NCBI GenBank assembly: GCA_016699795.1
Contig: CP065011.1
Span: forward strand, 546,474-610,473
Direction: 5' to 3'
Origin: Candidatus Moraniibacteriota bacterium
GTDB lineage: Bacteria > Patescibacteriota > Minisyncoccia > Moranbacterales > GCA-2747515
DNA length: 64,000 nt
The position numbers were made by a program, and so were the translations under genes. Positions 26,901 through 62,335 of the stretch are shown piece after piece. Each line of letters starts with the position of its first letter. Position 1 is the first letter of the stretch. The notes under the pieces are model-generated. The model was not told where the DNA came from. It did no database searches and saw nothing but the letters and a program-made list of their open reading frames with translations.

Positions 26901-28257
26901 TTCCCTGCATCTTGGAGGACTCATCTTTAACACAACCTACTTCTACAAACTTCTTTGTGAAGATAATCTTGGAACCCTCATAGAGAGTGAAGAAAAAAGC
27001 TTCACAACAAAACTCAAACAAGTAGACAGTGGAAGTGAACAAGCAGAATCTACTCCTCCCTCTATCTCAGGAGTCAAAGTCAAAGACATTACAGGAGAGA
27101 GTGCAGTCGTCAGTTGGGAGACGGATGAAGTTTCAAACTCACAGGTGAGGTATGGGACGACGAAGGAATTCGGGTCTGGGTCAATAGACGACACAGTCAA
27201 CTCCTCCCTCCAAAACTACACCACCTCCCACTCCGTAACTCTCCGAGGCCTCATCCCATCTACCAAATACTACTACTCCGCCCTCTCTCTCGACACCGCC
27301 GGAAACATAGGCACCTCCTCCCAACAAACCTTCCAAACGCAATCTCCTTCTTCCATCTCTTCCATTAAAGCTTCTTCCAAACAAATAGGGGAAACAACTA
27401 TCACATGGAAAACTTCCACTCCCACTACCTCTATTGTTGAATATGGAAACACAGAAAACTATGGACAAACAAGAAAAAGTGAAGAACTCAAAAAAGATCA
27501 TGAAATTATCATAAACAATCTTTTAGAAAACTCTACCTACCACTTCCGAGTAAAAGGAGAAGATGAATCAAAAAATCTCTTCTCTTCTTCCGACTCTACC
27601 TTTGAACCAAAGTCTCCACCACAAATCAAAGAAATCAAGATAGAAGTTCTTTCAGACAGAGAAGCAAAAGTAAACTTCCTTACTGATACTCTTACCGACT
27701 CTCTTGTAACCTACAAAAACAAAAACAAAGAAGAAGATCAAAAGAGTGAAGGAAATCCCTCCCTCCTCCAAACTCACTCCCTCACCCTCAAAGAACTCAC
27801 TCCTGGAGAAAACTACGTTCTTACTGTACGAGTCAGAGATGATATGGGAAATGAAACTCTCTCTGATGAGATAGAATTCACTATGCAAAAAGATGAAACT
27901 TCTCCTACAGTAGAAAGAGTCTCTACCGACTCCGCTCTTTCACAAAACGGAAAAGTACAAATGATTATTAACTGGCAAACAGATGAAGATGCTTCTTCCT
28001 CCCTCATCTACAAAGAAGGAAGAGCAGGAGAAGAAAAAACAGTGAATGTAAGTTCTTCCCCAACAAAGAATCACATCATTGTACTCACCTCTTGGAAACC
28101 AGGAACTCTCTACTCTTACAAAGTCATAGTAAAAGATCTGAGTGGGAATGAAACCATAACCAAAGACTACATCACCCTTACACCACAAACAAAAGAATCT
28201 GTTGTAGAACTCATCATAAAGAACTTCAAAGAAATCTTTGCTTGGACGGGAGGGTAG
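20901..28257 (+). CDS. Giant secreted surface protein (~2450 aa if joined) split into ORFs 20901..23351 and 23338..28257 by a frameshift at a G9 tract. It has a signal peptide, a thrice-repeated Gly-rich beta-helix-like module and about eight FN3/purple-acid-phosphatase-N-like domains.
   Basis: The module continues across the frame break: ..NLGTGGNNNSGGG|SIVLNVAESVI.. parallels the earlier ..NIGSGGTSISGAGSVILNVTGSVF.. FN3-like units have the form TITWETDELSDSRVEYATT...HRVTLTNLTPNTPYFFRVAS. Confidence 0.75.
21333..22798 (+). repeat. Exact in-frame tandem duplication, period 858 bp (286 codons). About 605 bp is 100% identical between the copies. A diverged third copy begins near 23090.
   Basis: aatctcgatgttcaaaccggaggacagattaatgtggatgggaaggggtatagtgg... 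recurs at 21335 and 22193. Protein segment NLDVQTGGQINVDGKGY...KNLVLRNKGQISVPTGTTL is duplicated. Confidence 0.9.
23319..23327 (+). repeat. Homopolymeric G9 tract at the frame break of the giant gene
   Basis: ttcagggggggggatc. With G8 (or G11) the two ORFs fuse in frame. Confidence 0.85.
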
Positions 28258-41209: not shown

Positions 41210-41283
41210 TCCGGGATGGCGCAGCGGTAGCGCAGGTGACTGTTAATCACTTGGTCGTCGGTTCGAATCCGACTCCCGGAGCA
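41210..41283 (+). tRNA. tRNA-Asn (anticodon GTT)
   Basis: TCCGGGA acceptor. D-arm GCGCagcggtaGCGC. Anticodon stem-loop GGTGA-CTGTTAA-TCACT. T-arm GTCGGTTCGAATCCGAC. 3' acceptor TCCCGGA followed by G and CA. Confidence 0.85.
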
Positions 41284-42874
41284 GAACTGGAGAACTAGAG
41301 TATAAAAGCTCTAGTTTTTCTTTATCTTCGGGCAAATTCGTAGGTTCGAACTGCTTGAATATCGTCTTTATCTCAGAAGAGATTTTTTCAAGGCCGACTA
41401 ACTTATTATTGGCTTCAATATTGAGTTTTTTCTCAGAAAGTGAGAGGTTCGAACCAATTGCCTTGAATATCTCTTTTCGCTTTTCTTCGTCGCCATCCTT
41501 GAATTTTTCTAGTGCATCTTGGGCGAATGCAAGCCATTCCTTGGCTTCTTCAAGTTGGTCTATCCAGTTGGTTGAATTGCTCTCAGAAGCGTCCAAACTT
41601 GCTCTAAGGCGTGATTTTTCTTGGGATATGGTATCTTTCTTGGTAATGAACTCACCTTCGCTTAGCTCGCCATTTATTCGCATATCTAGGAGTCTATCTA
41701 GCTTTTTGTCACAAGCTTCGAATTCTTTTTTGTGATCCTCGAGTGCTTGTTTCTTTTCTTCGATTTCATCCCTATTTTCTTCCATCAGTTTTTTGATTGC
41801 CCATTCCAAGAAAGTTGGATGAATCTTTATTTTCTTGAGAATTTTTATAATTTCTTCTTCAAACTTCTTTTCTTCGACCACTTTTTGATCACATTTTGGA
41901 TCTAGTCGATGACTGCAATGATAGTAGATGTAATAATGGGTGTTTCCATTCTGACATTTTTTAATTTTGTGTTCAGCTACAACTGATGCTCCGCATATTC
42001 CGCATCGTGTTGCTCCAGTATATTTGAAACTATATTTTCTTGGCCTAGTCGTTCCTCGTCGGCCGAGAATCATTTGAGTCTTTTCAAATTCCGCTTGAGA
42101 GATCATTGGCTCATGCTTTCCTTTATGCCATTGTCCGCTATCAGATGGGAATTCATACCAGCCATAGTAGAATGGGTTATTCATCATTGCATACCATGAG
42201 CTGATGGAAACTTTTTGACCATGCTTGTTTGTAAATTTCCAATCGCTAGTTCCTTTTCTATATGCCTCCGGGGGAGTGAGCTTTCCTGAAGCTACCATCT
42301 TCAGCATTTTTTGAATCGTTTCAAATCTTTCAGGGTCTTTTTCAATTTCTTTTTCACCTTTTAGTTTGATGGGATTGTGTTTGTATCCGAGTGGCGACCC
42401 ATTAGGATACCAACCTCGCTCTGCTTTGTTTCGTAGCCCTCGCTTTGTGTCAGTGCTTAAGTCTCGAATGAATTGATTTGCCATTCCTTGCTCTACAGCC
42501 ATCACCAGAACATTATCTTCAGGGTAATAACTTCTTCCGAATGTAAAAATATGTTTTATCATCTTACCCTGTAGCATCCAACTTATCGTACCGCTATCTA
42601 CAGGATTTCTAGACAGGCGATTAAGTTTCCAACAAAGTATTCCATCAGCTTCACCCCGTTTTATTTTTTCAAACATTTCGTTAAAAACTATCCTCCCAGG
42701 CTCTTTGGCTGATTTGGATTCATGCATAATTTCAGATATATTCAACCCGTTTTCTTCTGCGAGTCTTTTTAACTCTTCTATTTGTGAGTCGATTGATGCC
42801 ATTTGTCGATCCTCACTTTCGGATGATTTTCTGGCATAGAGGATGTATTTATTTGCCTTCACTTCTTGGTTCAT
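41243..42874 (-). CDS. Large serine recombinase (integrase)
   Basis: N-terminal resolvase domain YILYARKSSESEDRQMASIDSQ (catalytic Ser). Recombinase domain. Zinc-ribbon CGICGASVVAEHKIKKCQNGNTHYYIYYHCSH. Coiled-coil. 543 aa. Confidence 0.85.
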   Translation of the reverse strand: MNQEVKANKYILYARKSSESEDRQMASIDSQIEELKRLAEENGLNISEIMHESKSAKEPGRIVFNEMFEKIKRGEADGILCWKLNRLSRNPVDSGTISWMLQGKMIKHIFTFGRSYYPEDNVLVMAVEQGMANQFIRDLSTDTKRGLRNKAERGWYPNGSPLGYKHNPIKLKGEKEIEKDPERFETIQKMLKMVASGKLTPPEAYRKGTSDWKFTNKHGQKVSISSWYAMMNNPFYYGWYEFPSDSGQWHKGKHEPMISQAEFEKTQMILGRRGTTRPRKYSFKYTGATRCGICGASVVAEHKIKKCQNGNTHYYIYYHCSHRLDPKCDQKVVEEKKFEEEIIKILKKIKIHPTFLEWAIKKLMEENRDEIEEKKQALEDHKKEFEACDKKLDRLLDMRINGELSEGEFITKKDTISQEKSRLRASLDASESNSTNWIDQLEEAKEWLAFAQDALEKFKDGDEEKRKEIFKAIGSNLSLSEKKLNIEANNKLVGLEKISSEIKTIFKQFEPTNLPEDKEKLELLYSSSPVLLRESDSNRRPSD

Positions 42875-45796: not shown

Positions 45797-45856
45797 ATTG
45801 CCTACAGTAAGACTTGCTGGTTTACACAATTTACGGAAATATGCTATCCTATAAAC

Positions 45857-47845
45857 ATGAACGATGCATATTTTGGAAATAAAAAGATTTGTATAACGCA
45901 AAGACGTTATCTTGGCTCTAAAACTAAGCTACTATCATTTATAGATAGTATACTTGAAGGTGAGAATATAGAGTTTAATTCTTTCGCTGATATTTTTGCT
46001 GGAACTGGCACTGTTGCCAATCATTTTTATAATCGCTCTAAAATTATAGTGAATGATATTTTAGATTCAAATTCTCATGTCTACACAGCGTTTTTTGGTA
46101 AGGACATAATCAGGGAACAAAAACTGAAAGAACGACTAAAACATTATAATGACATTGAAATCAAAGAATATGATGAAAATTATTTTTCAAAAAACTTTTC
46201 AAACACTTATTTTGACGCAGAAAACGCTAAAAAAATAGGAATTATTAGGGATGATATTGAAAAATTATTTGAAGAAAAAATAATTACCAGTAGAGAAAAA
46301 TCTTATTTACTGACATCTTTGATTTACGCACTTGATAGAATTGCCAACACGGTTGGCCATTACGACGCATACAGAAAAATTGATATTCCAAATAAAAAAC
46401 TATTCTTGCTACCCCTTGATATAGCAAACTCTCGCTACTCTGCCAAAATCTACAAAGATGACGCTAATGAGTTGGTAAAAAAAATAAAAGCAGATGTTGT
46501 TTATATTGACCCGCCGTATAATTCTAGGCAGTATTCAGATTCTTATCACTTATTAGAAAATATCGCTACTTGGAAAAAGGAGACAGTTTTTGGTGTTGCC
46601 AAAAAAATTGACCGCTCTCACATCAAAAGCGAGTACAACATGAAATCTGCAGGCGTTGCCTTTGGCGATTTAATAGATAATATTAATGCGAAATATATCC
46701 TTGTTTCTTATAATGATATGGGGACTTCGGGTAATGCTCGTTCACAATCACGTATCAGTGACCATGAGATTTTGTCGTCGTTAAAACGGCGAGGTGAGGT
46801 AAAAGTCTTTGAAACCAACTTCAAACAATTCACTACTGGAAAATCGAGCAAGGATGATCTAAAAGAACGCATATTTTTGTGTAAGGTAGACATTGTCTCA
46901 AGAAACAATAAGGCGATAATTGCCTCAAAAAATAATCCTGTTCAAGCTGGCTTTGTAAAATCACCCCTTAACTACACTGGCGGAAAACATAAACTTTTAC
47001 CGCAAATAACAAAGTTATTTCCAGTTGGTATAAAAACTTTTTATGATGTATTTTCTGGCGGTGCGAATGTTGGAATTAACTCTACGGCTAAAAATATAAT
47101 CTGTATTGAAAAAAATCGTTATGTAGTAAGTCTGTTGAAGTTAATACAAAATGATAATTTTGAAGATTTGAATCAAAAAGTGATTGACATTATAGATAAA
47201 TTTGGTTTAAGCCAGAGCTATATAAAGGGCTACGACCATTATAATGTGGATAGTTCATCGGGTCTTGGTCAATACAATAAAGACGCTTTTCTAAATCTTC
47301 GCAGTGAGTTTAATAAAGAAAAAACAAGAATTGATTTATTGTTGGTGCTTGTTTTGTATTCTTTCAATAACCAAATTAGATTTAATTCAAATGGCGATTT
47401 TAATTTACCAGTTGGAAAACGGGATTATAATGGTAGTTCGAGGAGAAATGTTGCGTCTTTCAGCCAAGTATCAAACGAGAAAAAAATAGCATTTAAAAAT
47501 TGTGATTTTCGTGATGTTGAAAAAATGTCATTAATGAAAGATGATTTTGTGTATTTAGATCCACCATATTTGCTGGGTCTTGCTAGTTATAATGAAAAGG
47601 GAGGCTGGACAGAAAAAGATGAGAAAGACTTATATATACTCTTGACCAGACTCGATAAGAAAGGAATTAGATTTGCTTTATCAAATGTTTTAGAGCATAA
47701 AGGCAAAACTAATACAATTATGAAAAACTGGGCAAAAAAGCATAGTTACAAGATTCATAAACTAAACTATGACTACAAAAACTCAAATTATCACTCTACT
47801 GCAAAAAATAATAAAACCGTAGAGGTGCTTATTACAAATTACTGA
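45857..47845 (+). CDS. Fused tandem N6-adenine DNA methyltransferase (two D12-class/Dam-like domains), type IIS-style M subunit
   Basis: Domain 1: YLGSKTKLL, FAGTGTVA, VVYIDPPYNS. Domain 2: NYTGGKHKLL, FSGGANVG, FVYLDPPYLLG. Same architecture as M.AlwI/M.PleI/M.MlyI. Confidence 0.85.
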   Translation: MNDAYFGNKKICITQRRYLGSKTKLLSFIDSILEGENIEFNSFADIFAGTGTVANHFYNRSKIIVNDILDSNSHVYTAFFGKDIIREQKLKERLKHYNDIEIKEYDENYFSKNFSNTYFDAENAKKIGIIRDDIEKLFEEKIITSREKSYLLTSLIYALDRIANTVGHYDAYRKIDIPNKKLFLLPLDIANSRYSAKIYKDDANELVKKIKADVVYIDPPYNSRQYSDSYHLLENIATWKKETVFGVAKKIDRSHIKSEYNMKSAGVAFGDLIDNINAKYILVSYNDMGTSGNARSQSRISDHEILSSLKRRGEVKVFETNFKQFTTGKSSKDDLKERIFLCKVDIVSRNNKAIIASKNNPVQAGFVKSPLNYTGGKHKLLPQITKLFPVGIKTFYDVFSGGANVGINSTAKNIICIEKNRYVVSLLKLIQNDNFEDLNQKVIDIIDKFGLSQSYIKGYDHYNVDSSSGLGQYNKDAFLNLRSEFNKEKTRIDLLLVLVLYSFNNQIRFNSNGDFNLPVGKRDYNGSSRRNVASFSQVSNEKKIAFKNCDFRDVEKMSLMKDDFVYLDPPYLLGLASYNEKGGWTEKDEKDLYILLTRLDKKGIRFALSNVLEHKGKTNTIMKNWAKKHSYKIHKLNYDYKNSNYHSTAKNNKTVEVLITNY

Positions 47846-47848
47846 TTT

Positions 47849-49681
47849 TTGTGGCATACTGAAATTATGTTAAAAGCGTGGTCAATTACAACAACAGTTA
47901 GAAACCCGGAGCGTCTTCGTGATTTTTTGGTTGCTTTAAAGCCCCTTGAAAATAAAACTTGGGACAATGCTAATCAGGAAAATTATCAAAAACTTTTAAT
48001 CAAGAACCGTCTATATGGTTTTGGTAATGCACAATTTTATAATGGATTGACTGCAGATATTGTAAAGATGATAAATGATACCGACAGTGAAATTAATGAC
48101 AACACGGTAGATGAAATCATAAGATTGAAGAATTATACGGAATTTGCAATGCGTGGTCGTCAATCAATAAATCCTCTTACAAAATTTGGATTTGTAATTA
48201 TAGATAATGGCATAGTTAAAATAACAGAGCTTGGAAAGAAACTTATAGCTAGTGAAAAAGACGCTGGTGATGTGTTTCTGAAGTCGTTTATAAAATGGCA
48301 AATACCAAACCCAGCTAGTAACGATTTTCCAGATGATGGCGATTATGATGTCGTGCCTTTCGTTGCAACTCTTAAATTGATAAGCGAAGTTAATAGAATT
48401 GAAGCAGGGAAAGGAAATAATGCAGTTGGAATTAGTAAACGAGAGTTTTCATTATTTGTTCCATCATTGGTTAAGTATGCGGATATTGAAAAATATGCAG
48501 AGGAAATTGTTAAATTACGAACCCTGCAAAAAGGAAAAAAGAAGCAAGAACGAAAAGAGATTCGAGATAATTATCGTAAACAATTCGCAACCAACTTTTT
48601 GGGCACGAGTAAACAGACTGCGATCGATAAACTACTCCAAAATCTGAGGGATTATGGGGATAATGCAATTAGGTATTTCCGTCTAACAAAGTTTATCCGT
48701 ATTCGTGGCAATGGTTTTTATATTGATTTGGAGCCAAATCGTCGCATTGAGATCGAAGCTTTATTTGAAAGTGAATTTTATAAGCCAAAACATTTTGCAG
48801 ATAGAAATGAATATGTTTCCTATATGTCTGATGACAACTTGCCTGTATTGCCTTGGCAGACAAAAGATAAATTATCTAAAATTGCTAGCGATGTCTATAA
48901 GGATGTAATTGAATTGCAGAGCAATCTTGGTTTGGCGGTTGAAAGCAAGAAAGAGATATCGGCAATGTCTGAAAATGATCTAGTATTGTATGTTAATGAT
49001 TTGCGAGAAACTCGTAAGGAATTGCAAGAAAAGGACAATCATATCAAATCTCAACCAGTTTCATCAATCACTCAATATATTGAGCAACTAGAAGGAATTT
49101 TTGAATTTGAAAACCGTGCTTTAATGCTTGAATATCTCTCAACAATGGGACTTCACGCACTCAATGACGCAAAGGAAATTAAACCTAATTATCCAGTTGG
49201 AGATGATAACGAGCCGACATCAACTGCTCCTGGCGGTATGGCAGACATTGAATGTTTTTATGACAACTTTAATATGATCTGTGAAGTTACGATGTTGAAT
49301 GGCCGTGACCAATGGTTTAATGAAGGACAACCAGTTATGCGACATTTGCGTGATTTTGAAAACTCACACGACAATGCTTATTGTATTTTCATTGCACCAA
49401 AAATTCATACTGATAGTGCTGAAACTTTCCATATTGCTAACACAGTTGGATATAAGGGTAGCAAGCAAAAAATTGCACCGCTCACGATAAAACAATTTGT
49501 TGAATTATTAAAAACACTCAAAAAAATACGTGAGGCAAATAAAAATTTCACGCACAACAGTTTGAAAATTTTAATTAACGATATTGCTGATAGTGCCAAC
49601 AGTATTAGTAATTCTGATGATTGGGTTGCAAATACACAGAATATCGTCAATTCTTGGGCTATTAGTTTAGTAAGTGCGTAG
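47849..49681 (+). CDS. Putative type IIS restriction endonuclease (AlwI/PleI/MlyI/N.BstNBI-like), assigned by context and size
   Basis: 610-aa ORF starting 4 nt after the tandem methyltransferase. Size matches that REase family. No motif verified from memory. Confidence 0.45.
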   Translation: MWHTEIMLKAWSITTTVRNPERLRDFLVALKPLENKTWDNANQENYQKLLIKNRLYGFGNAQFYNGLTADIVKMINDTDSEINDNTVDEIIRLKNYTEFAMRGRQSINPLTKFGFVIIDNGIVKITELGKKLIASEKDAGDVFLKSFIKWQIPNPASNDFPDDGDYDVVPFVATLKLISEVNRIEAGKGNNAVGISKREFSLFVPSLVKYADIEKYAEEIVKLRTLQKGKKKQERKEIRDNYRKQFATNFLGTSKQTAIDKLLQNLRDYGDNAIRYFRLTKFIRIRGNGFYIDLEPNRRIEIEALFESEFYKPKHFADRNEYVSYMSDDNLPVLPWQTKDKLSKIASDVYKDVIELQSNLGLAVESKKEISAMSENDLVLYVNDLRETRKELQEKDNHIKSQPVSSITQYIEQLEGIFEFENRALMLEYLSTMGLHALNDAKEIKPNYPVGDDNEPTSTAPGGMADIECFYDNFNMICEVTMLNGRDQWFNEGQPVMRHLRDFENSHDNAYCIFIAPKIHTDSAETFHIANTVGYKGSKQKIAPLTIKQFVELLKTLKKIREANKNFTHNSLKILINDIADSANSISNSDDWVANTQNIVNSWAISLVSA

Positions 49682-49791
49682 CTCTTCCAAATTTTCCTAC
49701 AAGTAATGCTCCTTGCGGAAGCATTATCTATATGATTTATAGATAAAAAATTTTCGTTATTTTAGATTAATAACTCTCCTTAACTCTCTTT

Positions 49792-51360
49792 TTGTGCTAT
49801 TTTTTATATATGGTACAGAAAAGAGAAAATATCTTCGAAGTATATAAGCCTCTAAGGAACCACTTGAGAAAGTGTGAACTTGCTAATTCCTTGGAGGTAA
49901 TAAGAGCATATGCTCAAAATTTGCAATTTGGTAATAATAACTTTCCGCCTTATGTAGAAGTTTTAAATGAATTTTTGCAAAAGGATCATATTCAGAAAAC
50001 AAGATGGGTTTCCGAATGGAATCTGGAAATTCTAGCTAAAGAAGTAATAATAAATTCACCTATAAATGAGTGGAACGCAAAAACATTTAGACGGTGGTCG
50101 TATTTTATTGGTGCTGTTAATAAGCTTAAAGATATAGAAGGTAAAATTGCTACTGATCACATAGATGTATCAAATGTGCTTCGAGAATTAGAAAGAATGG
50201 CTCATGGTCAATTTGGCTGGCAAATCGGTCGCCCAAGTGCGGAGCTAATGGCAAGGTATTATAGAATTTATAGCACGTCCGAAATGGATACCTTAATAAG
50301 AGGTGCTATTGGATTAACAACAAAAGAGCTTTATTTTATGGGAGTTGCACTTACAGGATCATTTTTAACGCATTTTGCTTTGCATTATCCTCCTAAAATT
50401 GAAATTCCTGGATTAACTCAAGAAGCTATGGATAAATTTCTAAAGCATTTTTCATCCGATATTACTACTTTGAAAGAAAAATTAATATGCGAACAAAACA
50501 TAAATGAAAATTATTTTTACGCCTTTTCTTCCTTGAGAGGATATCCAATTATAAAGATGGATTTTGAAGGCAGATTTTGCTTAACTTGTCCCATTCCTAC
50601 GCTTTTATTCTGGAGAATCACTAGTGGATTATATTACGAAGTGGTCGATCAAAAAGGTTTTGACAATGCATTCGGAGCTTCATTTCAAAAGTATATTGGT
50701 GATTGTATTTCTGCTTCAATTACTAATGAGAATATAACGGCATTACCTGAGGAAAAAATTAGAGAAGGAAAAAATGAAAAAGATACGGTGGATTGGATAA
50801 TCGATGATGGTAAATCTGCTATTTTTATTGAGTGCAAGGCAAAGAGAATGACAATGCCTTCAAAGACTGAGTTGGTTATAAGTGATGCTTTCAGGAGGGA
50901 TGTCGAGAAAATGGCTGGTTTTGTTGTTCAGGTTTATAAAACCATAAAAGACTACCGAGCTGGAAAATATCTATCATATAGTTATGATGAAAAGAGGAAA
51001 GTATATCCGCTCGTGGTAACTCTCGAAGACTGGCACTTGTTCGGGGATAATGATTTATTGAAAGCCAAGATTGAAGAAAAATTAAAGGCGGAAAATATAT
51101 CACTGGATTGGTTGTCTAGTATGCCTTATACGATATGCTCGGCTCAAGAATTTGAAGAAATGATTCAGATTATTCAATTTAAGGGCATAGATGGAGTTGT
51201 TGGTAAAAAATCGAAAGATCCTGAAAAAGTTAAATGGGCAATGGCAAGTTTTCTGTCTTCTGAATATCCAGATGAGCATAAAAATACTAAAGCTTTATTT
51301 TTGAAAGACTTCAATTCTATTTTTCCAGATGAGATAGTCAAAAAAATAAAGATCAAATAA
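49792..51360 (+). CDS. Hypothetical protein with a PD-(D/E)xK-like nuclease motif (operon gene A)
   Basis: GASFQKYIGD...VDWIIDDGKSAIFIECKAKRMT (D..D...ExK spacing). Confidence 0.4.
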   Translation: MCYFLYMVQKRENIFEVYKPLRNHLRKCELANSLEVIRAYAQNLQFGNNNFPPYVEVLNEFLQKDHIQKTRWVSEWNLEILAKEVIINSPINEWNAKTFRRWSYFIGAVNKLKDIEGKIATDHIDVSNVLRELERMAHGQFGWQIGRPSAELMARYYRIYSTSEMDTLIRGAIGLTTKELYFMGVALTGSFLTHFALHYPPKIEIPGLTQEAMDKFLKHFSSDITTLKEKLICEQNINENYFYAFSSLRGYPIIKMDFEGRFCLTCPIPTLLFWRITSGLYYEVVDQKGFDNAFGASFQKYIGDCISASITNENITALPEEKIREGKNEKDTVDWIIDDGKSAIFIECKAKRMTMPSKTELVISDAFRRDVEKMAGFVVQVYKTIKDYRAGKYLSYSYDEKRKVYPLVVTLEDWHLFGDNDLLKAKIEEKLKAENISLDWLSSMPYTICSAQEFEEMIQIIQFKGIDGVVGKKSKDPEKVKWAMASFLSSEYPDEHKNTKALFLKDFNSIFPDEIVKKIKIK

Positions 51361-51364
51361 AATT

Positions 51365-52372
51365 ATGACATTGATTCTAGGTGTCCACATGGCCACAAAA
51401 ACATTTTTAATATCAGATACTAGACTTACTAAGCAAATGAGCGATGGCAGTTTTAAGTATGAAGATACTATCAATAAATCTTTTTCTTTGAACAAAAGAA
51501 TGAGTGGGATAGCGGCAGGACATGTTCAGCTTGCCGCTTTTGTGTTGAAGAAATTGAGGGAAAAAATTTCAGATGATTCTTTTATGATGGACTTAGAAAA
51601 AACAATCAATGAAAATGCAAACGATATCATTAAGGATTTTGTAAATACAACAATGATGACTAATCAGTTTACGGCAATGATATTCGCAGGATTTGATCGT
51701 GGTAGGGGGAAGAAAATAGGGGCAGCCATGCTTGGAAATGTAATGTCTGCAGAGTTAGCCTCTAGGGGAAATGGTTCGAGAATGAATCAGGCCGTTCATG
51801 CTAAAATTAAAGATGCATTAGCAGAAAATCTGATAAAAAGGGGTACGCTTGGAAAGGACTCCTTTATTGATGTAGATTTACCAAATTCAAGAATGCTTTC
51901 CCTGAAAATTGGAACTCGTCAATATGCCAATGGAAACTTCTATGAATTAAAAGAAATTGAATGCTATAACTATGTTTCTTTCTATCCTGATCAAGAATTC
52001 AAGAGCGTTATTTTGCCAAATACCTTGTTAACAAGTATTGAATTTCCTGAATTTGAGACTGTTTCCCCAAAAGAAGATGCTTTTGTTTATAGTGACTCAA
52101 TCAAGCTTATCAATTTTGTAAGGAAGGTTGTTAGGGAAAATAACTTTGTAAATGTTGGCGGCAATATCTTTCCTTTAATAGTTTTGCCTGAAGGGAGTAT
52201 ATTTCCTACGGGAGATATTGCAGTAATGGAAGATGGGAGACCCAAGATTATTGGGGGAATTCATTCTATCGATAATGTTTTATGCTATACATTGCCTGAT
52301 GGCACAAAAGGTCAATTTCAAACTATTGAGGGCTTGGGCGAAAATCCTTCAGTTACTCAATTACAAATATGA
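51365..52372 (+). CDS. Proteasome beta/HslV-like N-terminal nucleophile hydrolase homologue with a ~140-aa C-terminal extension (operon gene B)
   Basis: After Met removal, TLILGVHMATKTFLISDTRLT aligns with archaeal beta TTTVGITLKDAVIMATERRVT (Thr1, Gly5, Asp/Glu17, Arg19, Thr21). Also SGIAAGHVQLAAFVLKKL versus GMTIAGLVGDAQVLVRYM, and MIFAGFDRG versus LLVGGID. Confidence 0.45.
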   Translation: MTLILGVHMATKTFLISDTRLTKQMSDGSFKYEDTINKSFSLNKRMSGIAAGHVQLAAFVLKKLREKISDDSFMMDLEKTINENANDIIKDFVNTTMMTNQFTAMIFAGFDRGRGKKIGAAMLGNVMSAELASRGNGSRMNQAVHAKIKDALAENLIKRGTLGKDSFIDVDLPNSRMLSLKIGTRQYANGNFYELKEIECYNYVSFYPDQEFKSVILPNTLLTSIEFPEFETVSPKEDAFVYSDSIKLINFVRKVVRENNFVNVGGNIFPLIVLPEGSIFPTGDIAVMEDGRPKIIGGIHSIDNVLCYTLPDGTKGQFQTIEGLGENPSVTQLQI

Positions 52373-52929
52373 ACAATGACGATTTGAAAAAAATAAAGAA
52401 GTACATTGGAGTTGCTGAAAAAATAAGGAATTCAAACTTCATCAAAAATACAAAGCAGGTTAGTTTTAAGATGAATATCGAAATAGACAAGCCTGTTCGT
52501 TTTGAATCCACTGGATTTGATGAAGACCTGCTCAAATCAGCCTTGATGGATTTTAGAAAAATATACATGAAAAAAGACAGCACTAATTTTTTTCGTATAT
52601 ATAACTTGATATACAAAAATACCGATGATATTGCGATTAAGAACAATATAGAGAAGTGTAGAGAGATTTATGCGAAAATACTTAGTAGACCGACATCCAT
52701 AGGAATATACATAAACAAAGAGCTTCAAAATGTCGAAAAGATTATAGATGATTGGCTATACGGATACTATTTTCATGAAGATGATGAGAGAGAAGAAAAA
52801 ATGCAGGCCATAATGATAGGGCAACTATTTCATAGAGCATCATTCGTAACTTCCATTATAGATCTGATGAAAATTGCTATTGTTATGTCTAATAATGCAA
52901 AAAAGATTATATCGGAGTATGAGAGTTGA
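52369..52929 (+). CDS. Hypothetical protein (operon gene C, 186 aa)
   Basis: Start overlaps gene B stop (ATGA). No family recognised. Confidence 0.35.
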   Translation: MNNDDLKKIKKYIGVAEKIRNSNFIKNTKQVSFKMNIEIDKPVRFESTGFDEDLLKSALMDFRKIYMKKDSTNFFRIYNLIYKNTDDIAIKNNIEKCREIYAKILSRPTSIGIYINKELQNVEKIIDDWLYGYYFHEDDEREEKMQAIMIGQLFHRASFVTSIIDLMKIAIVMSNNAKKIISEYES

Positions 52930-52945
52930 CCTTTATTCGACTTGG

Positions 52946-53521
52946 TTAGCTTTTGTAAGGAGTGCTTTTGGGCAGTAGTAAATCATTTTTTTCAAAAAAA
53001 TCTTTCCATACATACATGCACCCTTGCACAACTCCTTTCAGGTCGTATTGATTACCTTTAAAGGTTACTAGATAATTACCCATAAATATCCCTTCCTCTT
53101 CTTTTAAATGTAGCGTTTCTTTTCTTTCTTGAGCCTCTTTAAGTTCTTTTGTAGATGCCTTAAAAATAGAACCCCCATAAGGCACTATTTTTGTGTCAGG
53201 ATCATTTGGCTTGTATTTTAATACTGCATGCTTTGATTTATTGCATAAATCACGACACATCTGGAATTGCACAGGAGAATCATGATTTTCGAAAGTTGGA
53301 AGTTTATCCTTTATGAGTTTATCAACCTTGCCATCTTCTTGAACCCACTCTCTGAGGTGATAGCAAGTTAGGAGGAAATCATAAACATCATCTAATCTCT
53401 CCTGAGAACTTTTTGAAAAAGTAGTACTTTCAAAATCGGCTATGATCTTGTCATGAACTCGCTCCATACGCCTGTATTGACTTTCAAGGCTTTCTGAATA
53501 ATCTTCTCTTGATTTTGTCAT
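52946..53521 (-). CDS. Hypothetical protein (191 aa), convergent on the operon
   Basis: Intact ORF. No family recognised. Confidence 0.35.
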   Translation of the reverse strand: MTKSREDYSESLESQYRRMERVHDKIIADFESTTFSKSSQERLDDVYDFLLTCYHLREWVQEDGKVDKLIKDKLPTFENHDSPVQFQMCRDLCNKSKHAVLKYKPNDPDTKIVPYGGSIFKASTKELKEAQERKETLHLKEEEGIFMGNYLVTFKGNQYDLKGVVQGCMYVWKDFFEKNDLLLPKSTPYKS

Positions 53522-53699
53522 AAGATTAGGGTTAATAATTATATTATCAATTATAGCATTTTATGCCTAATGGGTTCGTATCATTTTCAACTCGTGGAGC
53601 CATCTTTCGCCAAGGCTACAGAATGGCATGCCACAATGGTAAACTATTTATGTAACTATTGGTCTTAAACTATGCTATGCACACTACACCTATATCCTC

Positions 53700-56025: not shown

Positions 56026-56256
56026 AAAGGAAGAATAAGTAAAAGAAAAAGAGTCGTGCTAACTCTTTTTAATTATGTCTCCCGATACTAGGGATGACTT
56101 ATATTTAGTATGAGCGTTTCGTGAAATCTTTTTACATCTATTTTCAGTGACAGGAGTCGAAGTTTATGTCCTTTAGGGTAAATCCTGCCGCCGGAGCCAA
56201 CAAAAAACGAGGCTGTAAAAAGCCTTGTTTTTTGTTACCCGGGATAGGATTCGAAC

Positions 56257-56637
56257 ATGATTATCTACAAAGCACACGCGGTGAAAATTGACATGGCAAG
56301 ACAATGGCGTTACTGTAATTGCGAGCCTATAAACTCTTATGGAGGAGTTACCATGCGTACGTTCTTTTCTCGATATACAATTGGATTATTGGTCGGAACT
56401 ATTCTCGGGCTTGCTTATCCGGCGTCGGCATCGGTATGGAGTTTTTTCATCCTTCTGGGAGTTCTTGTGGTGAATGAACTCATGGGTAGGTGGGGCTTCG
56501 GGCAACACTGGAATGGATATCGACTCTCTTCGTATGCGCTTCATTTTGGGTTTTTGGCATGTATCTGGCTGGGTATCCAATTCGGAAGTGGAAATATCGG
56601 TACCTTCCTTGTTTTCGTCGGCGAAAAAATTAGTTAG
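56257..56637 (+). CDS. Small membrane protein (probable start near 56353), locally GC-richer
   Basis: MRTFFSRYTIGLLVGTILGLAY... has three TM helices. Followed by its own hairpin terminator (~56645-56690). Confidence 0.3.
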   Translation: MIIYKAHAVKIDMARQWRYCNCEPINSYGGVTMRTFFSRYTIGLLVGTILGLAYPASASVWSFFILLGVLVVNELMGRWGFGQHWNGYRLSSYALHFGFLACIWLGIQFGSGNIGTFLVFVGEKIS

Positions 56638-56814
56638 ACTTAAACCCCTACCTGCAGAAACCTGCTTCGGTGGGTTTTTGCTTTTTAAGGACATATAGTG
56701 AAAAGTGGGGTGTAATAAACTCTACATACCTTCAATCTGAAATAGTAGAACTTTGAGGTTTTATCCTCCTGTACAGAGGTTCTAATAGTGTTCAGCAGGC
56801 GGAGCCACAAATAA

Positions 56815-56850
56815 AACGACGTCCTTGAAGGACGTCTTTTTTATTTTTTC
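56815..56850 (+). terminator. Orphan rho-independent terminator (GACGTCCTT-ga-AGGACGTC plus T-tract)
   Basis: aaaacGACGTCCTTgaAGGACGTCttttttatttttt. No protein-coding ORF ends in front of it. Confidence 0.5.
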
Positions 56851-57390
56851 TTTGAAAATGGTTTTCAAATAGAAAAAAGTCGCGAAAACACTTGTTTTAT
56901 TTTACTTCGAGGACTAATTAAAAATAGATAATGATAAAAATGGATATGAGAAACTTACTCTAATATAATAAGAAAAGCGACGTGGTATGCTATACCAAAT
57001 CGCTTTTAGAAATCTTGAGGGTACTTATTTATTACTTCCTAATAGTGGCGAATTTCGTTCCTACTTTTTTCAGAAGTTTTTTATACCATTTCATTTTTGT
57101 CTTTTTTGGCATGTCTTGTGAGACTATTATTTCAACACTTGTTTCAAGTGCATCTTTCATCATTCCTGACACCACAACGCTTTCATAATGATTGAGCATT
57201 TGTTCTCGTTTCCTACTCATTTTACCTATCTCGATTACTGAACCTTTTCAGATTTTAGCATAGAAGTTGTGCTAGTCAATGTATCGTACTCTAAATTTTT
57301 TTGCTGTAATGTTACTAAGGTAACAGTAAGAGGTGACATCATTTACAACAATCCTTAAAATGTAACCTTGGCTACGCAATAGTACATGAA

Positions 57391-57813: not shown

Positions 57814-58318
57814 AAAGAAATGATTTTAAATAAAAGAGCTTGACGAGCTCTTTTTTCTTTGAACTCATTTATAAATCAAGGTATTACTATGACGGGAGAT
57901 GTTTAATGAAAGATTGAAAGTGACGATGAAATAAATAGGAAAGTCTGCTATAGATTTCACTATTTTTATTTTGAAAAAGAATTTTTTATTTTAAATATTT
58001 TTGTTTTTAGTTCCAAGATAAACATGAATCAAAATTTTTGCTTAGACGTTTATACTTACATTGCGTTCTAAGAATTCATAGAGTATCATTACTACTATAA
58101 CCTAAAAAACACACAACTATGTTTTCAAAAAAAACAAAAAAAAACAAAAAAAAGATTCTAAAATACAAATCATTTCTCTTCTTCTTGTCATAAGCTTTTT
58201 TCTTGGAAGTATTCTTCTTATTCAAAAAACAACAACATCGAATATCTTCTCAGGAATTTCTTTTGATTTACCATTTTCAGATGCTGCTACTCCAACAATA
58301 AAACTTTCAAATGGTGAT

Positions 58319-60142
58319 ATGGAGCGAGTTGTAAATGGTAAGCCTAAGGATTGGGATTCTGGTGGACAGGCTGGAATTTCCGGTCTCACCTTGGCGAGTA
58401 TGCAAGCCCCAATGAGTAGTACGGGTTCTAAGAATGGTTCTTACTATTTGCGTGCAATGAATGCAATCGGAAAAGACGGTGCGTGGATGTGGATTACAAA
58501 TTCAGAACGCATAAACACGCAAGGAGCTACAGAGATACGAGTTAATGGTTTCGTCCGTAGTAGCGGTATAGACCTAATTATTTTTGGTATTAAAGAACAG
58601 GATGCGAATGGAAATGAAATTCAAAGTCCGACTGGACCTGCAATGAGAACTCCTTCATGGGCATGGCATGAATACACAGCCAATGCAGGAAGTCATTGGT
58701 TCAAACTTCATCCGAATACACGAACAATTTCATTTTATCTTCTTGCAAAGCCCTATACTTCAGTTCAGACATATCTTGACCTCGATCAAATTTCACTGGA
58801 GGCTAAGGGAGGCGTGACGGGACAACAAACTCTTACTGTAGCAAAAGCTGGTACTGGAGCAGGAACAATAGTATCAAATCCTTCTGGAATTAATTGTGGT
58901 ACAACATGTTCAAAAACATTACCTCAAAATACAAAGGTTACACTCACAGCTTCACCTCAAAGCGGAAATACTTTTGAAGGATGGGCAGGAGACTGTAGAG
59001 GAGCAAGTAAGACGTGTTCTGTATCTCTTACACGAGCTCGTAATGTAACGGCTACGTTTAAGGGTTCGAACACGGGAGGCTCTATCACCGTCTCTCCGGC
59101 TACCATTGTTTCGAATAATTCTTCCGTAATGCAAGGCATACTTTATAATACACAACTTGATGCTCCACTTGTTATGGTTCCTGGGGGTATCTATTGGTAT
59201 GCATCAAATTTTGTTTGTTCTGGAGGTATAAAACATGCTCAACTTAAGGGATCTTTGGATAATCCTTATGCGACACCAACCTGGTTTAAAGATACGTGTC
59301 AGAGAAATTCTAGCTATTTTTGTACTAACGCAACTTCGGTAGGAGCTAACCTTTTCACAACATTCAATCCGAGTTTGACGGATGTTGTGAATTTATGGTT
59401 GATGGGTGTGTATCAAATTCAAGGTGCTGAACTTTTGGGAATAGTGCATGAAGAAAATGTAGGCACCTTTACTCCTGGAGTTGGTTTAACTCGGATTGGT
59501 TTAGCGTGGTCGAATGATAGTGGAAATACCTGGAAATATTTAGGTCGAATAGTATCTCGTAACAATGATGTTAGTGGTGATAATATTCAAGGAGCTCCTT
59601 ATATAGTAAAAGATGGGTATTTATATGTATATTTTCATGACTACCCAGGTTTTATTGCAGTGGCAAGAGCAAATTTAAGTAGTGTTATATCTTCAGCTAG
59701 AGCAGGGCATGTCGGATCGAATATATGGAAAAAATATTATAATGGCACATGGACGCAACCGGGTTTGGGTGGATTAAGTAGCCAATTAGGACTTCAAGGA
59801 ATTTCCCATACTCAGATGGTGTACAGCACAGTGAAAAACAAATATTACATGGTTACAACTAAACTTTCATATTCTGGTGGTAATACAAATGTCAATCTTT
59901 ATGAATCTACTGATGGCGTAAGTTGGAAACAATCAGCTAAAATTGCTGATGAACCCGCAAGTCAACAAGGAACTAATGGTGGTTATCAGTATTGTTCTAT
60001 TGCAAGTACTCAAGGAACAGCGAATCATTCCGTGGGATCTGAATTTTATGTCTATTGTATGAAATTTTATTCAGGTGTAGTGGGTGTTTGTGGTTCTAAA
60101 AATCAACAAAATTTGCATCGTTGGAAAATTACTTTACAATAG
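58319..60142 (+). CDS. Secreted protein with a divergent InlB B-repeat domain plus a large C-terminal domain (paralog 1). The likely N-terminal signal anchor is encoded upstream from ~58154 without an in-frame canonical start.
   Basis: LTVAKAGTGAGTIVSNPSGINCGTTCSKTLPQNTKVTLTASPQSGNTFEGWAGDCRGASKTCSVSLTRARNVTATF. The upstream in-frame sequence encodes KIQIISLLLVISFFLGSILLI. Confidence 0.6.
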   Translation: MERVVNGKPKDWDSGGQAGISGLTLASMQAPMSSTGSKNGSYYLRAMNAIGKDGAWMWITNSERINTQGATEIRVNGFVRSSGIDLIIFGIKEQDANGNEIQSPTGPAMRTPSWAWHEYTANAGSHWFKLHPNTRTISFYLLAKPYTSVQTYLDLDQISLEAKGGVTGQQTLTVAKAGTGAGTIVSNPSGINCGTTCSKTLPQNTKVTLTASPQSGNTFEGWAGDCRGASKTCSVSLTRARNVTATFKGSNTGGSITVSPATIVSNNSSVMQGILYNTQLDAPLVMVPGGIYWYASNFVCSGGIKHAQLKGSLDNPYATPTWFKDTCQRNSSYFCTNATSVGANLFTTFNPSLTDVVNLWLMGVYQIQGAELLGIVHEENVGTFTPGVGLTRIGLAWSNDSGNTWKYLGRIVSRNNDVSGDNIQGAPYIVKDGYLYVYFHDYPGFIAVARANLSSVISSARAGHVGSNIWKKYYNGTWTQPGLGGLSSQLGLQGISHTQMVYSTVKNKYYMVTTKLSYSGGNTNVNLYESTDGVSWKQSAKIADEPASQQGTNGGYQYCSIASTQGTANHSVGSEFYVYCMKFYSGVVGVCGSKNQQNLHRWKITLQ

Positions 60143-60359
60143 AGAAAAATTATAAAGTCTTGACCATCCTAAATAAAAGAGTATCATTACTACTATAACT
60201 TAAAAAAACATACAACTATGTTTTCAAAAAAAAAAAAAAAAAAAAAAAAAAGATTCTAAAATACAAATCATTTCTCTTCTTCTTGTCATAAGCTTTTTTC
60301 TTGGAAGTATTCTTCTTATTCAAAAAAAAGCAACAACGGAGAGCTTCTCAAGAATCTCT

Positions 60360-61232
60360 ATGGACTTACCATTTTCAGATGCTGCAAATATCGATTTGCC
60401 ACCTTCAGATGCTACAGATGTTGATTTACTATCTTCAGATGCCGAAGATGTTGATCTACTATCTTCAGATACTGCTGAAGTTGCACTTAAAACTCTTATC
60501 GTGGCCAAGGTGGGTGCTGGAGCGGGAAAGATAATATCAAATCCTTCGGGAATTAATTGTGGCACAACCTGTTCTAAGGCCTATGCGAACGGTACCAGAG
60601 TTACTTTAACAGTAACACCTGCTCAGGGCAGTACCTTTGCGGGTTGGGGTGGTGCTTGTTCCGGTACGGGTACGTGTAGAGTTTTGATGGACGCTGGAAA
60701 AAAAGTAACGGCGAGATTTAATACAAAAATACAAACAGAAACCCTCAAAGTATCCAAAACCGGCTCAGGAACGGTAACATCAGAACCTGCTGGTATTAAT
60801 TGTGGTGCCACCTGTTCTAAAGATTATGAGAAAGGAATCAAAGTTATTCTGACAGCGGTCCCTGCACAGGGAAATAGCTTTGGTAGTTGGAGTGGTGGAC
60901 CTTGTCTTTCTGCTTATTCGTACAAGTGTACGGTTTCAATGGATTTTGCAAGAAATGTGACAGCGAATTTTATTACAGGAACCACACAAACACTCACCGT
61001 ATCTAAAGCTGGTACTGGGTCAGGAACAGTAACATCATATCCTGCTGGTATTGACTGTGGTTCGGCTTGCACTAAATCCTACACGAATCAAACCGCTGTT
61101 TCTTTGAAAGTAATCCCTGCGGCAGGTAGTGTCTTTGCGGGTTGGAGTGGGAATTGTTCTGGTTTGTATTCATGTGCGTTTCAAATGAATGCTCCGAAAA
61201 ATGTGACGGCAACATTCAATAAAATTCAATAA
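60360..61232 (+). CDS. Secreted protein with three divergent InlB B-repeat domains (paralog 2). Same leader arrangement; the signal-anchor coding region begins ~60252.
   Basis: Three copies of [LTVSK]AGTGxGTVTSxPAGIxCGxxCxKxYxxxTxVxLxxxPAxGSxFAGWSGxC...NVTAxF. Acidic DxxDVDLLSSDA repeats at the N-terminus. Confidence 0.6.
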   Translation: MDLPFSDAANIDLPPSDATDVDLLSSDAEDVDLLSSDTAEVALKTLIVAKVGAGAGKIISNPSGINCGTTCSKAYANGTRVTLTVTPAQGSTFAGWGGACSGTGTCRVLMDAGKKVTARFNTKIQTETLKVSKTGSGTVTSEPAGINCGATCSKDYEKGIKVILTAVPAQGNSFGSWSGGPCLSAYSYKCTVSMDFARNVTANFITGTTQTLTVSKAGTGSGTVTSYPAGIDCGSACTKSYTNQTAVSLKVIPAAGSVFAGWSGNCSGLYSCAFQMNAPKNVTATFNKIQ

Positions 61233-61569
61233 AAGTATATAAATAGAAATCCTCATTGTAGCCAAAGCTGGTACTGAGTCATGAATGGTGTGATGTTAGA
61301 TTTGTTGCTAATAGTATTTGAGGCACGCCCATCTATTCCGAAGCTTGCCTAGGTGAAATGGAGAAATTTTCATAAATATTGAGGCATTTCATGCTATTTC
61401 ATAGTTCTAAAAGGGGTTACCTTGAGTTTTTACGGTTCCGCAAAGAGATTTCGTCGTGCCCAATTCTTGGAATAAATAGAGCTTACATACAAGTATTTTG
61501 TATAATTTTTTGTGTTATAAAATATTCTGTTTGATTGTATTAATCTTGTAATTTTAAATATATAAAAAT

Positions 61570-61950
61570 ATGGAAAAGTATGTAGACGGATTCGTGCTTG
61601 TAGTTTCAAAAGATAAATCTGAGGAATACAAGAAAATGGCAGAGGGTGGCCGTGATATGTGGATGAAATTTGGCGCTCTTTCATATTATGAATGTCGGGG
61701 GGAAGATCTTATTTCACAGGAAGAGGGAGATGAAAAAGCTCGCGCATTTACTGAGATGACTGGAGCAAAAAGTGATGAGATGGTTTGGTTTTCATTTATA
61801 GTTTTTAAATCTAAAAAACATCGAGACGAAGTTAACGCTAAGGTGATGGAGGAAATGAGTAAACAGATGGAAGGAAATAAAGATATAGCAATGCCTTTTG
61901 ATATGAAACGAATGGCTTATGGGGGCTTTCAAGTAGAAATAGAAGGTTAG
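61570..61950 (+). CDS. DUF1428 family protein
   Basis: MEKYVDGFVLVVSKDKSEEYKKMAEGG...ALSYYECRGEDL matches the DUF1428 N-terminus (assignment from memory). GC-richer than its surroundings. Confidence 0.5.
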   Translation: MEKYVDGFVLVVSKDKSEEYKKMAEGGRDMWMKFGALSYYECRGEDLISQEEGDEKARAFTEMTGAKSDEMVWFSFIVFKSKKHRDEVNAKVMEEMSKQMEGNKDIAMPFDMKRMAYGGFQVEIEG

Positions 61951-62042
61951 AAAATGAATTTAGAATCATAAAATTACTTTCAGCAAAATGGGGACAGTCT
62001 TGATGTAATTTTTTTAAAATACTTTTTTGAAATGTAGTGAGT

Positions 62043-62181
62043 GAGGATGCTTCTCAAAATCATAGAGTAAATGGATCTTTCTATGCGTACTGTGCGAAAT
62101 TTAAAACAAGCACTACTAACATAGGTAGTTCACAAAGAAATTCTCAAGCACTACATCGTTGGAAGATAACTTTACAATAGA
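62043..62181 (+). pseudogene. 3'-terminal remnant of a third InlB-B-repeat-family paralog
   Basis: Encodes ..NGSFYAYCAKFKTSTTNIGSSQRNSQALHRWKITLQ*, versus the paralog-1 C-terminus ..GSEFYVYCMKFYSGVVGVCGSKNQQNLHRWKITLQ*. Confidence 0.6.
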
Positions 62182-62335
62182 GAAAGATTTTCAGATATAA
62201 TTTTGAGGTTTTTTGGAAAATTTCTTTGAATAAAAACGTGTAGACGTGCGTAATGCTATACTTTTTAAGGGATATTTGAACACTAAGAAAGACTTAAAGT
62301 TTTATGTTTTTACTCTATTGAGAGTGTGAAAACAT

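Follow-up and report, generated by a model that had tools for sequence, protein, structure and literature searches.

An A-rich repeat in the signal-anchor leader of predicted surface proteins as a candidate on/off switch in a Candidatus Moraniibacteriota bacterium

Mycoplasmas, which are small, AT-rich and host-dependent bacteria, switch adhesin and lipoprotein genes such as vaa of Mycoplasma hominis and P78 of M. fermentans on and off by the gain or loss of one A in a 5' poly(A) run. The opa genes of Neisseria carry CTCTT repeats in the region encoding the signal peptide, and in Gardnerella nanH3 a poly-C beside the signal peptide causes the gene to be annotated without it (bioRxiv 10.1101/2020.09.16.300947). 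The 5' poly(A) tract of Listeria monocytogenes inlA mutates ~1000-fold faster than the point-mutation rate and reverts at high frequency, and 5' poly(A)/poly(T) tracts have been proposed as general switches (PMC2831843). Here we describe an A-rich leader in a stretch of 64,000 nucleotides (the window) of contig CP065011.1, the metagenome-assembled genome (MAG) of a Candidatus Moraniibacteriota bacterium that consists of one contig of 1,186,598 bp with locus tags IPN70_. The leader precedes two paralogous genes, paralog 1 (IPN70_02965) and paralog 2 (IPN70_02970), and in both the start codon and the sequence encoding a signal anchor stand in different frames. We propose that a mosaic family of surface proteins is switched on and off by a hypermutable repeat in the Lys-rich n-region of the signal anchor, a reading to which we give a probability of roughly 0.5.

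In paralog 1, translation as written leads away from the anchor (Table 1). The earlier note had placed a poly-A tract, A8-C-A9-C-A8, behind the only upstream ATG, which lies at 58119 and is out of frame with the anchor. On re-reading all coordinates hold, and the tract occupies 58127-58153. The frame of the open reading frame (ORF) reads *KTHNYVFKKNKKKQKKDSKIQIISLLLVISFFLGSILLIQK...GD-MERV around the leader and, as had also been claimed, the ORF listing contains no ATG, GTG or TTG in it from the stop at 58103 until 58319; to enter this frame from ATG 58119, a change of +1 or -2 nucleotides is indeed required, since 58160-58119 = 41, which is 2 mod 3. The 71 codons from the stop to ATG 58319 read KTHNYVFKKNKKKQKKDSKIQIISLLLVISFFLGSILLIQKTTTSNIFSGISFDLPFSDAATPTIKLSNGD in the ORF frame, a Lys-rich n-region followed by a 20-residue hydrophobic helix, and it is the n-region that the tract encodes. 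The frame of ATG 58119 as written yields a peptide of 24 amino acids, MFSKKTKKNKKKILKYKSFLFFLS, which ends at TAA 58191-58193. Two properties of the tract had been missed in the first reading: it is a perfect tandem repeat of the 10-nucleotide unit AAAAAAAACA (2.7 copies, 100% matches in Tandem Repeats Finder), and its end overlaps an A_AAA_AAG heptamer that sits in the right frame for a -1 shift. As a semi-tryptic peptide for paralog 1, we name IQIISLLLVISFFLGSILLIQK.

The evidence that carries our reading comes from a third copy of the leader. A homologue search with the reconstructed protein led to IPN70_02270 (P0062) in the same genome, whose leader is encoded as a single continuous ORF, MFSKKTKKNKKKQKKDSKIQIISLLLV..., with the N-terminus MFSKKTKKNKKKQKKDSKIQIISLLLVISFFLGSILLIQKATTRDIFSGISFDLPFSDAA and the continuous reading MFSKKTKKNKKKQKKDSKIQIISLLLVISFFLGSILLIQK. 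Its first 12 residues are those of paralog 1 read in the ATG frame, the N-terminus MFSKKTKKNKKK being common to both, and from QKKDSK on it follows paralog 1 read in the anchor frame. Judged by its Thr, Asn and Gln codons, non-A bases fall exactly every 10 nucleotides in this ORF, at positions 17, 27 and 37, and the A blocks deduced from the protein are 8|9|9|8, compared with 8|9|8 in paralog 1. On this deduction, the tract of paralog 1 appears to be the in-frame tract minus exactly one 10-nucleotide unit, and a difference of one unit points to a product of repeat slippage rather than to a random +/-1 miscall of a homopolymer. Because IPN70_02270 carries the same leader in one ORF, we take ATG 58119 as established to be the intended start of paralog 1, and the anchored protein to be its intended product. 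The tract states can then be read as ON in IPN70_02270 (3.7 units, 37 nucleotides inferred), OFF in paralog 1 (2.7 units, 27 nucleotides) and OFF in paralog 2 (A26).

The second A-rich site of the window lies 2.1 kb downstream of the first, before the next gene, and belongs to the same cassette. This cassette of ~210 bp comprises a putative -10 box (TATCAT at 58084-58089 in copy 1), the 5' untranslated region, ATG TTT TCA, the A-tract, the anchor and the sequence DLPFSDAA, and is recognized by the signature AGAGTATCATTACTACTATAAC...ATGTTTTCA. It runs from AGAGTATCATTACTACTATAAC (58080 in copy 1, 60178 in copy 2) to 58287 and 60385, respectively, beyond which the genes diverge. The two copies are nearly identical, and identity is 100% in two stretches, 58080-58100 (the 21 nucleotides with the putative -10 box) and the 76 nucleotides that follow the tract; their main difference is the tract itself (27 nucleotides and interrupted versus A26), and the gene bodies differ. 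ATG 60218, too, shares no frame with its anchor or with the ORF at 60360-61232, but the offset is in the opposite direction, such that -1 or +2 nucleotides are needed, and its frame as written encodes MFSKKKKKKKKRF in 13 codons before the stop TAA at 60257-60259. Either copy in the window is in frame whenever its tract length is 1 mod 3. Measured from stop to stop, the open frames span 678 codons in paralog 1 and 343 codons in paralog 2, in a genome of 35% GC. Both paralogs are annotated by the NCBI models from downstream ATGs, and thus without the anchor.

Within the 64 kb, 26-mers with at least 24 A's occur only in the two paralog leaders, and none arose in 100 dinucleotide-preserving shuffles; when all runs were listed, no A or T run longer than 9 was found besides A26. 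The repeat units measure 1 and 10 nucleotides, neither a multiple of three, and the off-frame peptides only 24 and 13 amino acids. The locus thereby shows the anatomical hallmarks of repeat-based phase variation: a long tract, a non-triplet unit, early off-frame stops and a predicted surface product. The A-rich context without a Shine-Dalgarno (SD) sequence before ATG 58119 is typical for genes of this genome. An SD-like motif at -16 to -11 was present at ~4 of 45 inspected starts, most of which are preceded by A-rich sequence, and with so few motifs start prediction by SD is uninformative here. In ordinary genes, nine of ten runs of three lysines contain AAG (AAG AAA AAA or similar), even though AAA exceeds AAG 3.5-fold (675:195), a codon pattern that suggests selection against runs of A9 or longer outside the special leaders.

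How would such a switch operate? Slipped-strand mispairing would lead to the gain or loss of single A's or of a 10-nucleotide unit and toggle each gene independently. At tract lengths of 1 mod 3, the number of lysines alone would change, and the protein would be anchored with its body outside; at other lengths, translation would end 2-12 codons past the tract. The n-region would lend itself to this role as a part of an exported protein with free length, where in-frame changes would be harmless and out-of-frame changes would abort translation. OFF alleles would probably leak. Transcriptional slippage in bacteria occurs at runs of 9 A, and a 28-A tract shifts ~40% to the +1 frame (PMC5009743). 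At the frame junction, both A9 (58136-58144) and A26 (60226-60251) reach the slippage length of at least 9 A's; slippage would be expected on A9 and nearly unavoidable on A26, and some in-frame product from OFF alleles probably arises where RNA polymerase slips on A9 or, above all, on A26. Ribosomes that slip by -1 on A_AAA_AAG at a low level could add to this in paralog 1, entering the anchor frame at GAT 58154. The earlier note had held that a signal-bearing form needs a change in tract length or slippage. This requirement stands and is strengthened by the in-frame paralog; that the length changes frequently and reversibly, and that slippage takes place, we infer.

How does this locus compare with the described switches? 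In the Mycoplasma genes, the run has 7-9 A's, the leader is a lipoprotein signal peptide and there is no 10-nucleotide unit. A parallel in architecture is Neisseria opa, where a non-triplet unit likewise lies in the leader coding region of a paralogous surface family, each member has its own repeat count, some in and some out of frame, and the ON state returns with every third unit count. The differences are that the unit here is an A-rich 10-mer or a mononucleotide run, encodes a Lys n-region rather than the hydrophobic core, is present in 2.7-3.7 units and occurs, as a candidate switch, in a bacterium of the candidate phyla radiation (CPR). Like our locus, nanH3 carries a homopolymer at the 5' end of a gene for an exported enzyme of the sialidase fold, and its off alleles are annotated from a downstream start, as are IPN70_02965 and IPN70_02970; its tract, however, is a poly-C of 8-14 that follows the signal peptide, and its length heterogeneity in culture was shown experimentally. 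In inlA, too, a poly(A) lies a few codons past the ATG of a surface gene and a frameshift results in a very short peptide, but this is a single short tract, whereas the tracts here have 26-37 nucleotides, are partly interrupted and are common to a gene family.

The proteins themselves fit an exported family. The leader combines a strongly positive n-region with a 20-residue hydrophobic helix and has no cleavage motif nearby; by the positive-inside rule, the likeliest topology is that of a signal anchor that stays uncleaved and leaves the body of the protein outside the cell. In paralog 1, an N-terminal domain is joined to one divergent InlB B-repeat, and a beta-propeller forms the C-terminal part; the label of an InlB-B-repeat ORF, given from the letters alone, is borne out by PF18998 (E 2e-10). 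The C-terminal domain of 350 residues was modelled as a beta-propeller with a predicted local distance difference test (pLDDT) score of 85.7, which matches sialidases of glycoside hydrolase (GH) family 33, enzymes of GH43/GH62 and endo-arabinanase at the level of the fold only (template modelling scores 0.45-0.59). Its match to BNR_2 stays below threshold, and a PDB sequence search with paralog 1 found no match. Paralog 2 contains three InlB B-repeats. In IPN70_02270, the leader is combined with an InlB repeat near-identical to the one in paralog 1, whereas the N-terminal domain differs, as does the C-terminal part, which has a weak PIG-L match; such differing domain combinations make the family mosaic, as is usual for variable surface-protein families. 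The proteins look extracellular because of the InlB B-repeats and the glycosidase-like beta-propeller, and their exposure on the surface is predicted on this basis. Directly after the anchor of paralog 2 lies an in-frame tandem repeat of 30 nucleotides (60366-60483, 3.9 copies), whose decapeptides are DLPFSDAANI, DLPPSDATDV and DLLSSDAEDV; paralog 1 has the motif once. A length-variable stalk is a possible role of this repeat.

These features also bear on whether the annotation is simply correct, such that the proteins start at ATG 58319 and 60360, are cytoplasmic and follow a fortuitously open anchor frame. Although these starts are the NCBI gene models (QQS60828.1 and QQS60829.1), the 71 open codons upstream spell a textbook Lys-rich n-region and hydrophobic helix, the anchor sequence is identical to the N-terminus of the in-frame paralog, and the ORF bodies, with Cys-containing InlB B-repeats and a propeller of the glycosidase type, are typical of exported proteins; moreover, the homologue P0001 has a normal signal peptide. 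We consider cytoplasmic products from the annotated starts extremely improbable. A start at one of the non-canonical in-frame codons ATA, ATC or ATT at 58163-58172 was also set aside, as it would remove the positive n-region and the in-frame paralog uses ATG.

A different possibility is that the out-of-frame state is the normal genotype, with a low level of expression set by transcriptional slippage, by ribosome sliding on poly(A) or, in paralog 1, by a -1 shift on A_AAA_AAG. Of the three copies, two stand out of frame, A9 and A26 are long enough for slippage by bacterial RNA polymerases (PMC5009743), and the heptamer at 58148-58154 lies in the correct frame, its -1 product being the expected leader. 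The identical heptamer in the correct frame links paralog 1 to -1 frameshifting of the dnaX type, but there are no stimulators here, paralog 2 is left out and the shift would enter the main ORF at codon 12 with no second product. No stimulatory structure was found near the heptamer, the fold of 58154-58260 reaching -11.3 kcal/mol (z = -1.4) with a stem 46 nucleotides downstream; the sequence upstream, pure A/C, contains no SD-like element. Programmed -1 frameshifting was rejected as the main mechanism for want of such a structure and because paralog 2 needs the opposite shift and has no usable heptamer, and a structured RNA element because a search of Rfam found no match. Rescue by slippage in Buchnera and Blochmannia, and in Citrobacter tssM, likewise concerns genes interrupted at runs of at least 9-10 A's whose product is restored at the RNA level, in reduced AT-rich genomes (PMC4256274; PMC5009743). 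Those genes are scattered and often have housekeeping functions, whereas here the tract has a fixed, designed-looking position in a leader that is common to a surface-protein family and also exists as an in-frame copy. With one leader in frame and opposite corrections (+1 versus -1) required in the other two, no fixed recoding event is conserved, and the RNA-level routes would represent leak rather than the main design. We regard recoding as the normal mode of expression as quite unlikely. Doubtful as well, but less so, is the idea of the poly(A) leader as a frame-agnostic device, in which polymerase slippage and ribosome sliding on A26, and more weakly on A9, would spread every transcript or translation over three frames. 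Low, noisy expression of each paralog would then be set per cell in the RNA, independently of the frame in the DNA, with the C's tuning the slipperiness of each copy; this would be a stochastic switch across the whole family in a CPR episymbiont rather than classical phase variation of the DNA.

Related sequences were sought by several routes. An exhaustive comparison of the anchor peptide with 1.84 billion representatives returned three spurious weak matches only. Two word-index searches with the leader gave no match and are uninformative, since a local phmmer scores P0062 at 106 bits. Exact-protein look-up of encoding contigs found no record for paralog 1, paralog 2, the DUF1428 gene, the gene at 51365, P0062 or P0144. 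With P0123, the look-up led to contigs of a relative (JGI metagenomes 3300077xxx), ~91% identical over 45803-53602. Synteny with the window is lost at 53602, after which these contigs continue with GH18 and S-adenosylmethionine synthetase genes, and the cassette is absent, which makes the region with both paralogs apparently strain-specific.

Several points weigh against a switch. The comparison comprises three copies from one consensus genome, the third known as protein only; 2.7 units of the 10-nucleotide repeat are few for fast unit slippage; and a 25-mer of the leader remained unmatched in genome, metagenome and viral contig collections, as did protein-guided scans of public DNA for the leader. 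Further points concern the assembly. A single-contig MAG of an uncultured bacterium is probably of long-read origin, and the style of its locus tags and accession resembles that of activated-sludge MAGs from Nanopore and Illumina data. Since the cassette of ~210 bp is repeated, tract-spanning short reads fall almost wholly inside it, hampering placement and polishing and making the length of A26 especially uncertain. To our knowledge, no technology counts 26 A's reliably. Could the true tracts, then, be in frame (e.g. 28 or 37 nucleotides in paralog 1 and 25 or 28 in paralog 2) and have been miscounted in the consensus or during polishing? Homopolymers are a classic weak spot of such data (PMC9262707), and the three places in the window where a frame is broken coincide with the longest tracts rich in A and with the one G run that exceeds 7. 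On the other side, the ~70 homopolymers of at least 7 inside long ORFs of the window are all in frame, as is A9 at 20916-20924 in the signal peptide of another gene, and against the 91%-identical relative no isolated homopolymer indels were seen in the 7.8 kb compared. The assembly is thus generally sound at 7-9-mers. Paralog 1 and the in-frame copy differ by exactly one 10-nucleotide unit (A8|A9|A8 versus A8|A9|A9|A8), unlike +/-1 miscalls, and a run of A25-28 would be intrinsically unstable even if the true lengths were in frame. We judge a miscount unlikely, although it comes first among the alternatives; it is less probable at paralog 1 and more probable where the exact length of A26 is concerned.

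The last point against the switch is the state of paralog 2, which is the truncated remainder of a longer gene and is bordered by degraded pieces of the 3' part that it once had. The remnant of a paralog C-terminus comprises 47 codons (62037-62180) and is separated from paralog 2 by an intact DUF1428 gene (61570-61950). The segment 61233-62189 looks as if a tandem duplicate of paralog 1, once full-length, had undergone an internal replacement or deletion. Together with the absence of the region from 53602 on in related strains, which marks it as dispensable and strain-variable, this would fit two recently inactivated pseudogenes of a redundant family, in which the tract is a chance site of the lesion with no role in switching. 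Paralog 1, however, has an uninterrupted frame of 678 codons with all domains, a confidently modelled propeller (pLDDT 85.7) and no other lesion. The leader, including an anchor that would then be useless, is 100% identical between the copies, both lesions sit in the one element that is able to revert, and neutral decay of an interrupted tract does not predict that a coding leader would carry pure A26. Gene decay thus seems an unlikely explanation, ranking behind an assembly error and ahead of a frame-agnostic leader.

What would an on/off switch mean for this organism? In the prevailing view, bacteria of the CPR/Patescibacteria spend their lives attached to host cells, with surface proteins as the likely interface. 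Little is known about variation of CPR surfaces beyond diversity-generating retroelements and hypervariation of in-frame repeats (e.g. PMC6851277), and our literature search retrieved no report of repeat-driven on/off switching in CPR/Patescibacteria. If true, this would extend a familiar type of mechanism to a new lineage, and the cassettes, three in number and each predicted to be ON when its tract length is 1 mod 3, would provide a concrete, testable case. It would also mean that automatic annotation has silently removed the signal anchors from these proteins, and other long homopolymers, such as the G9 run of a 2,451-residue Fn3 protein near pilus genes, may share the strategy. If the tracts are artefactual, they offer a useful caution for long-read MAGs.

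Table 1. Positions in the window of the leader elements, the two paralogs and the remnants downstream.
Feature	Position	Strand	Remarks
Leader cassette copy 1	58080-58287	+	aligns with 60178-60385
Stop TAA of the anchor/ORF frame	58103-58105	+	frame reading
Leader start ATG (ATG TTT TCA)	58119-58121	+	also opens the in-frame paralog
Interrupted poly-A tract, 27 nucleotides	58127-58153	+	A8 58127-58134, C, A9 58136-58144, C, A8 58146-58153
A_AAA_AAG heptamer, ATG frame	58148-58154	+	read from sequence
Hydrophobic segment IQIISLLLVISFFLGSILLI (predicted signal anchor), ORF frame	58163-58222	+	identical in paralog 2 and P0062
Paralog 1, IPN70_02965, QQS60828.1, 607 amino acids as annotated	58319-60142	+	frame open from 58106
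Leader cassette copy 2	60178-60385	+	promoter-like TTGACC-16-TATCAT 60160-60187; ATG 60218
Uninterrupted A26 tract, paralog 2	60226-60251	+	run listing, repeat analysis
Paralog 2, IPN70_02970, QQS60829.1, 290 amino acids as annotated	60360-61232	+	frame open from 60204
Decayed InlB B-repeat start (ILIVAKAGTES*), contains stops	61247-61285	+	past the stop of paralog 2
Paralog 3'-end remnant (...ALHRWKITLQ*) and downstream sequence	62037-62189	+	last 36 nucleotides 92% identical to the end of paralog 1

The G9 run at 23319-23327 is the only G/C run longer than 7 in a window of 35% GC and lies in the overlap of the ORFs 20901-23351 and 23338-28257; removal of one G joins them into a single ORF of 2,451 codons. 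The protein that it splits bears a normal signal peptide, contains many domains of the Fn3-like type and is encoded just upstream of a PilB/T2SSE-type ATPase. G9 represents either another candidate contingency locus or an error in the homopolymer: it supports an organism that tolerates or uses such tracts in surface genes, yet fits the artefact equally well. Upstream of the paralogs, the ~1.3 kb at 56030-57390 hold short overlapping ORFs only, with no family matches, save for a membrane-like ORF of 126 amino acids at 56257-56637. Further upstream, a tRNA-Asn gene (41210-41282) adjoins the minus-strand ORF 41243-42874, whose counterpart in a relative has a recombinase zinc-ribbon domain, and this ORF is followed by a Dam-type methyltransferase and an AlwI-type restriction enzyme; the segment 41210-49681 may be an integrated island with a restriction-modification system.

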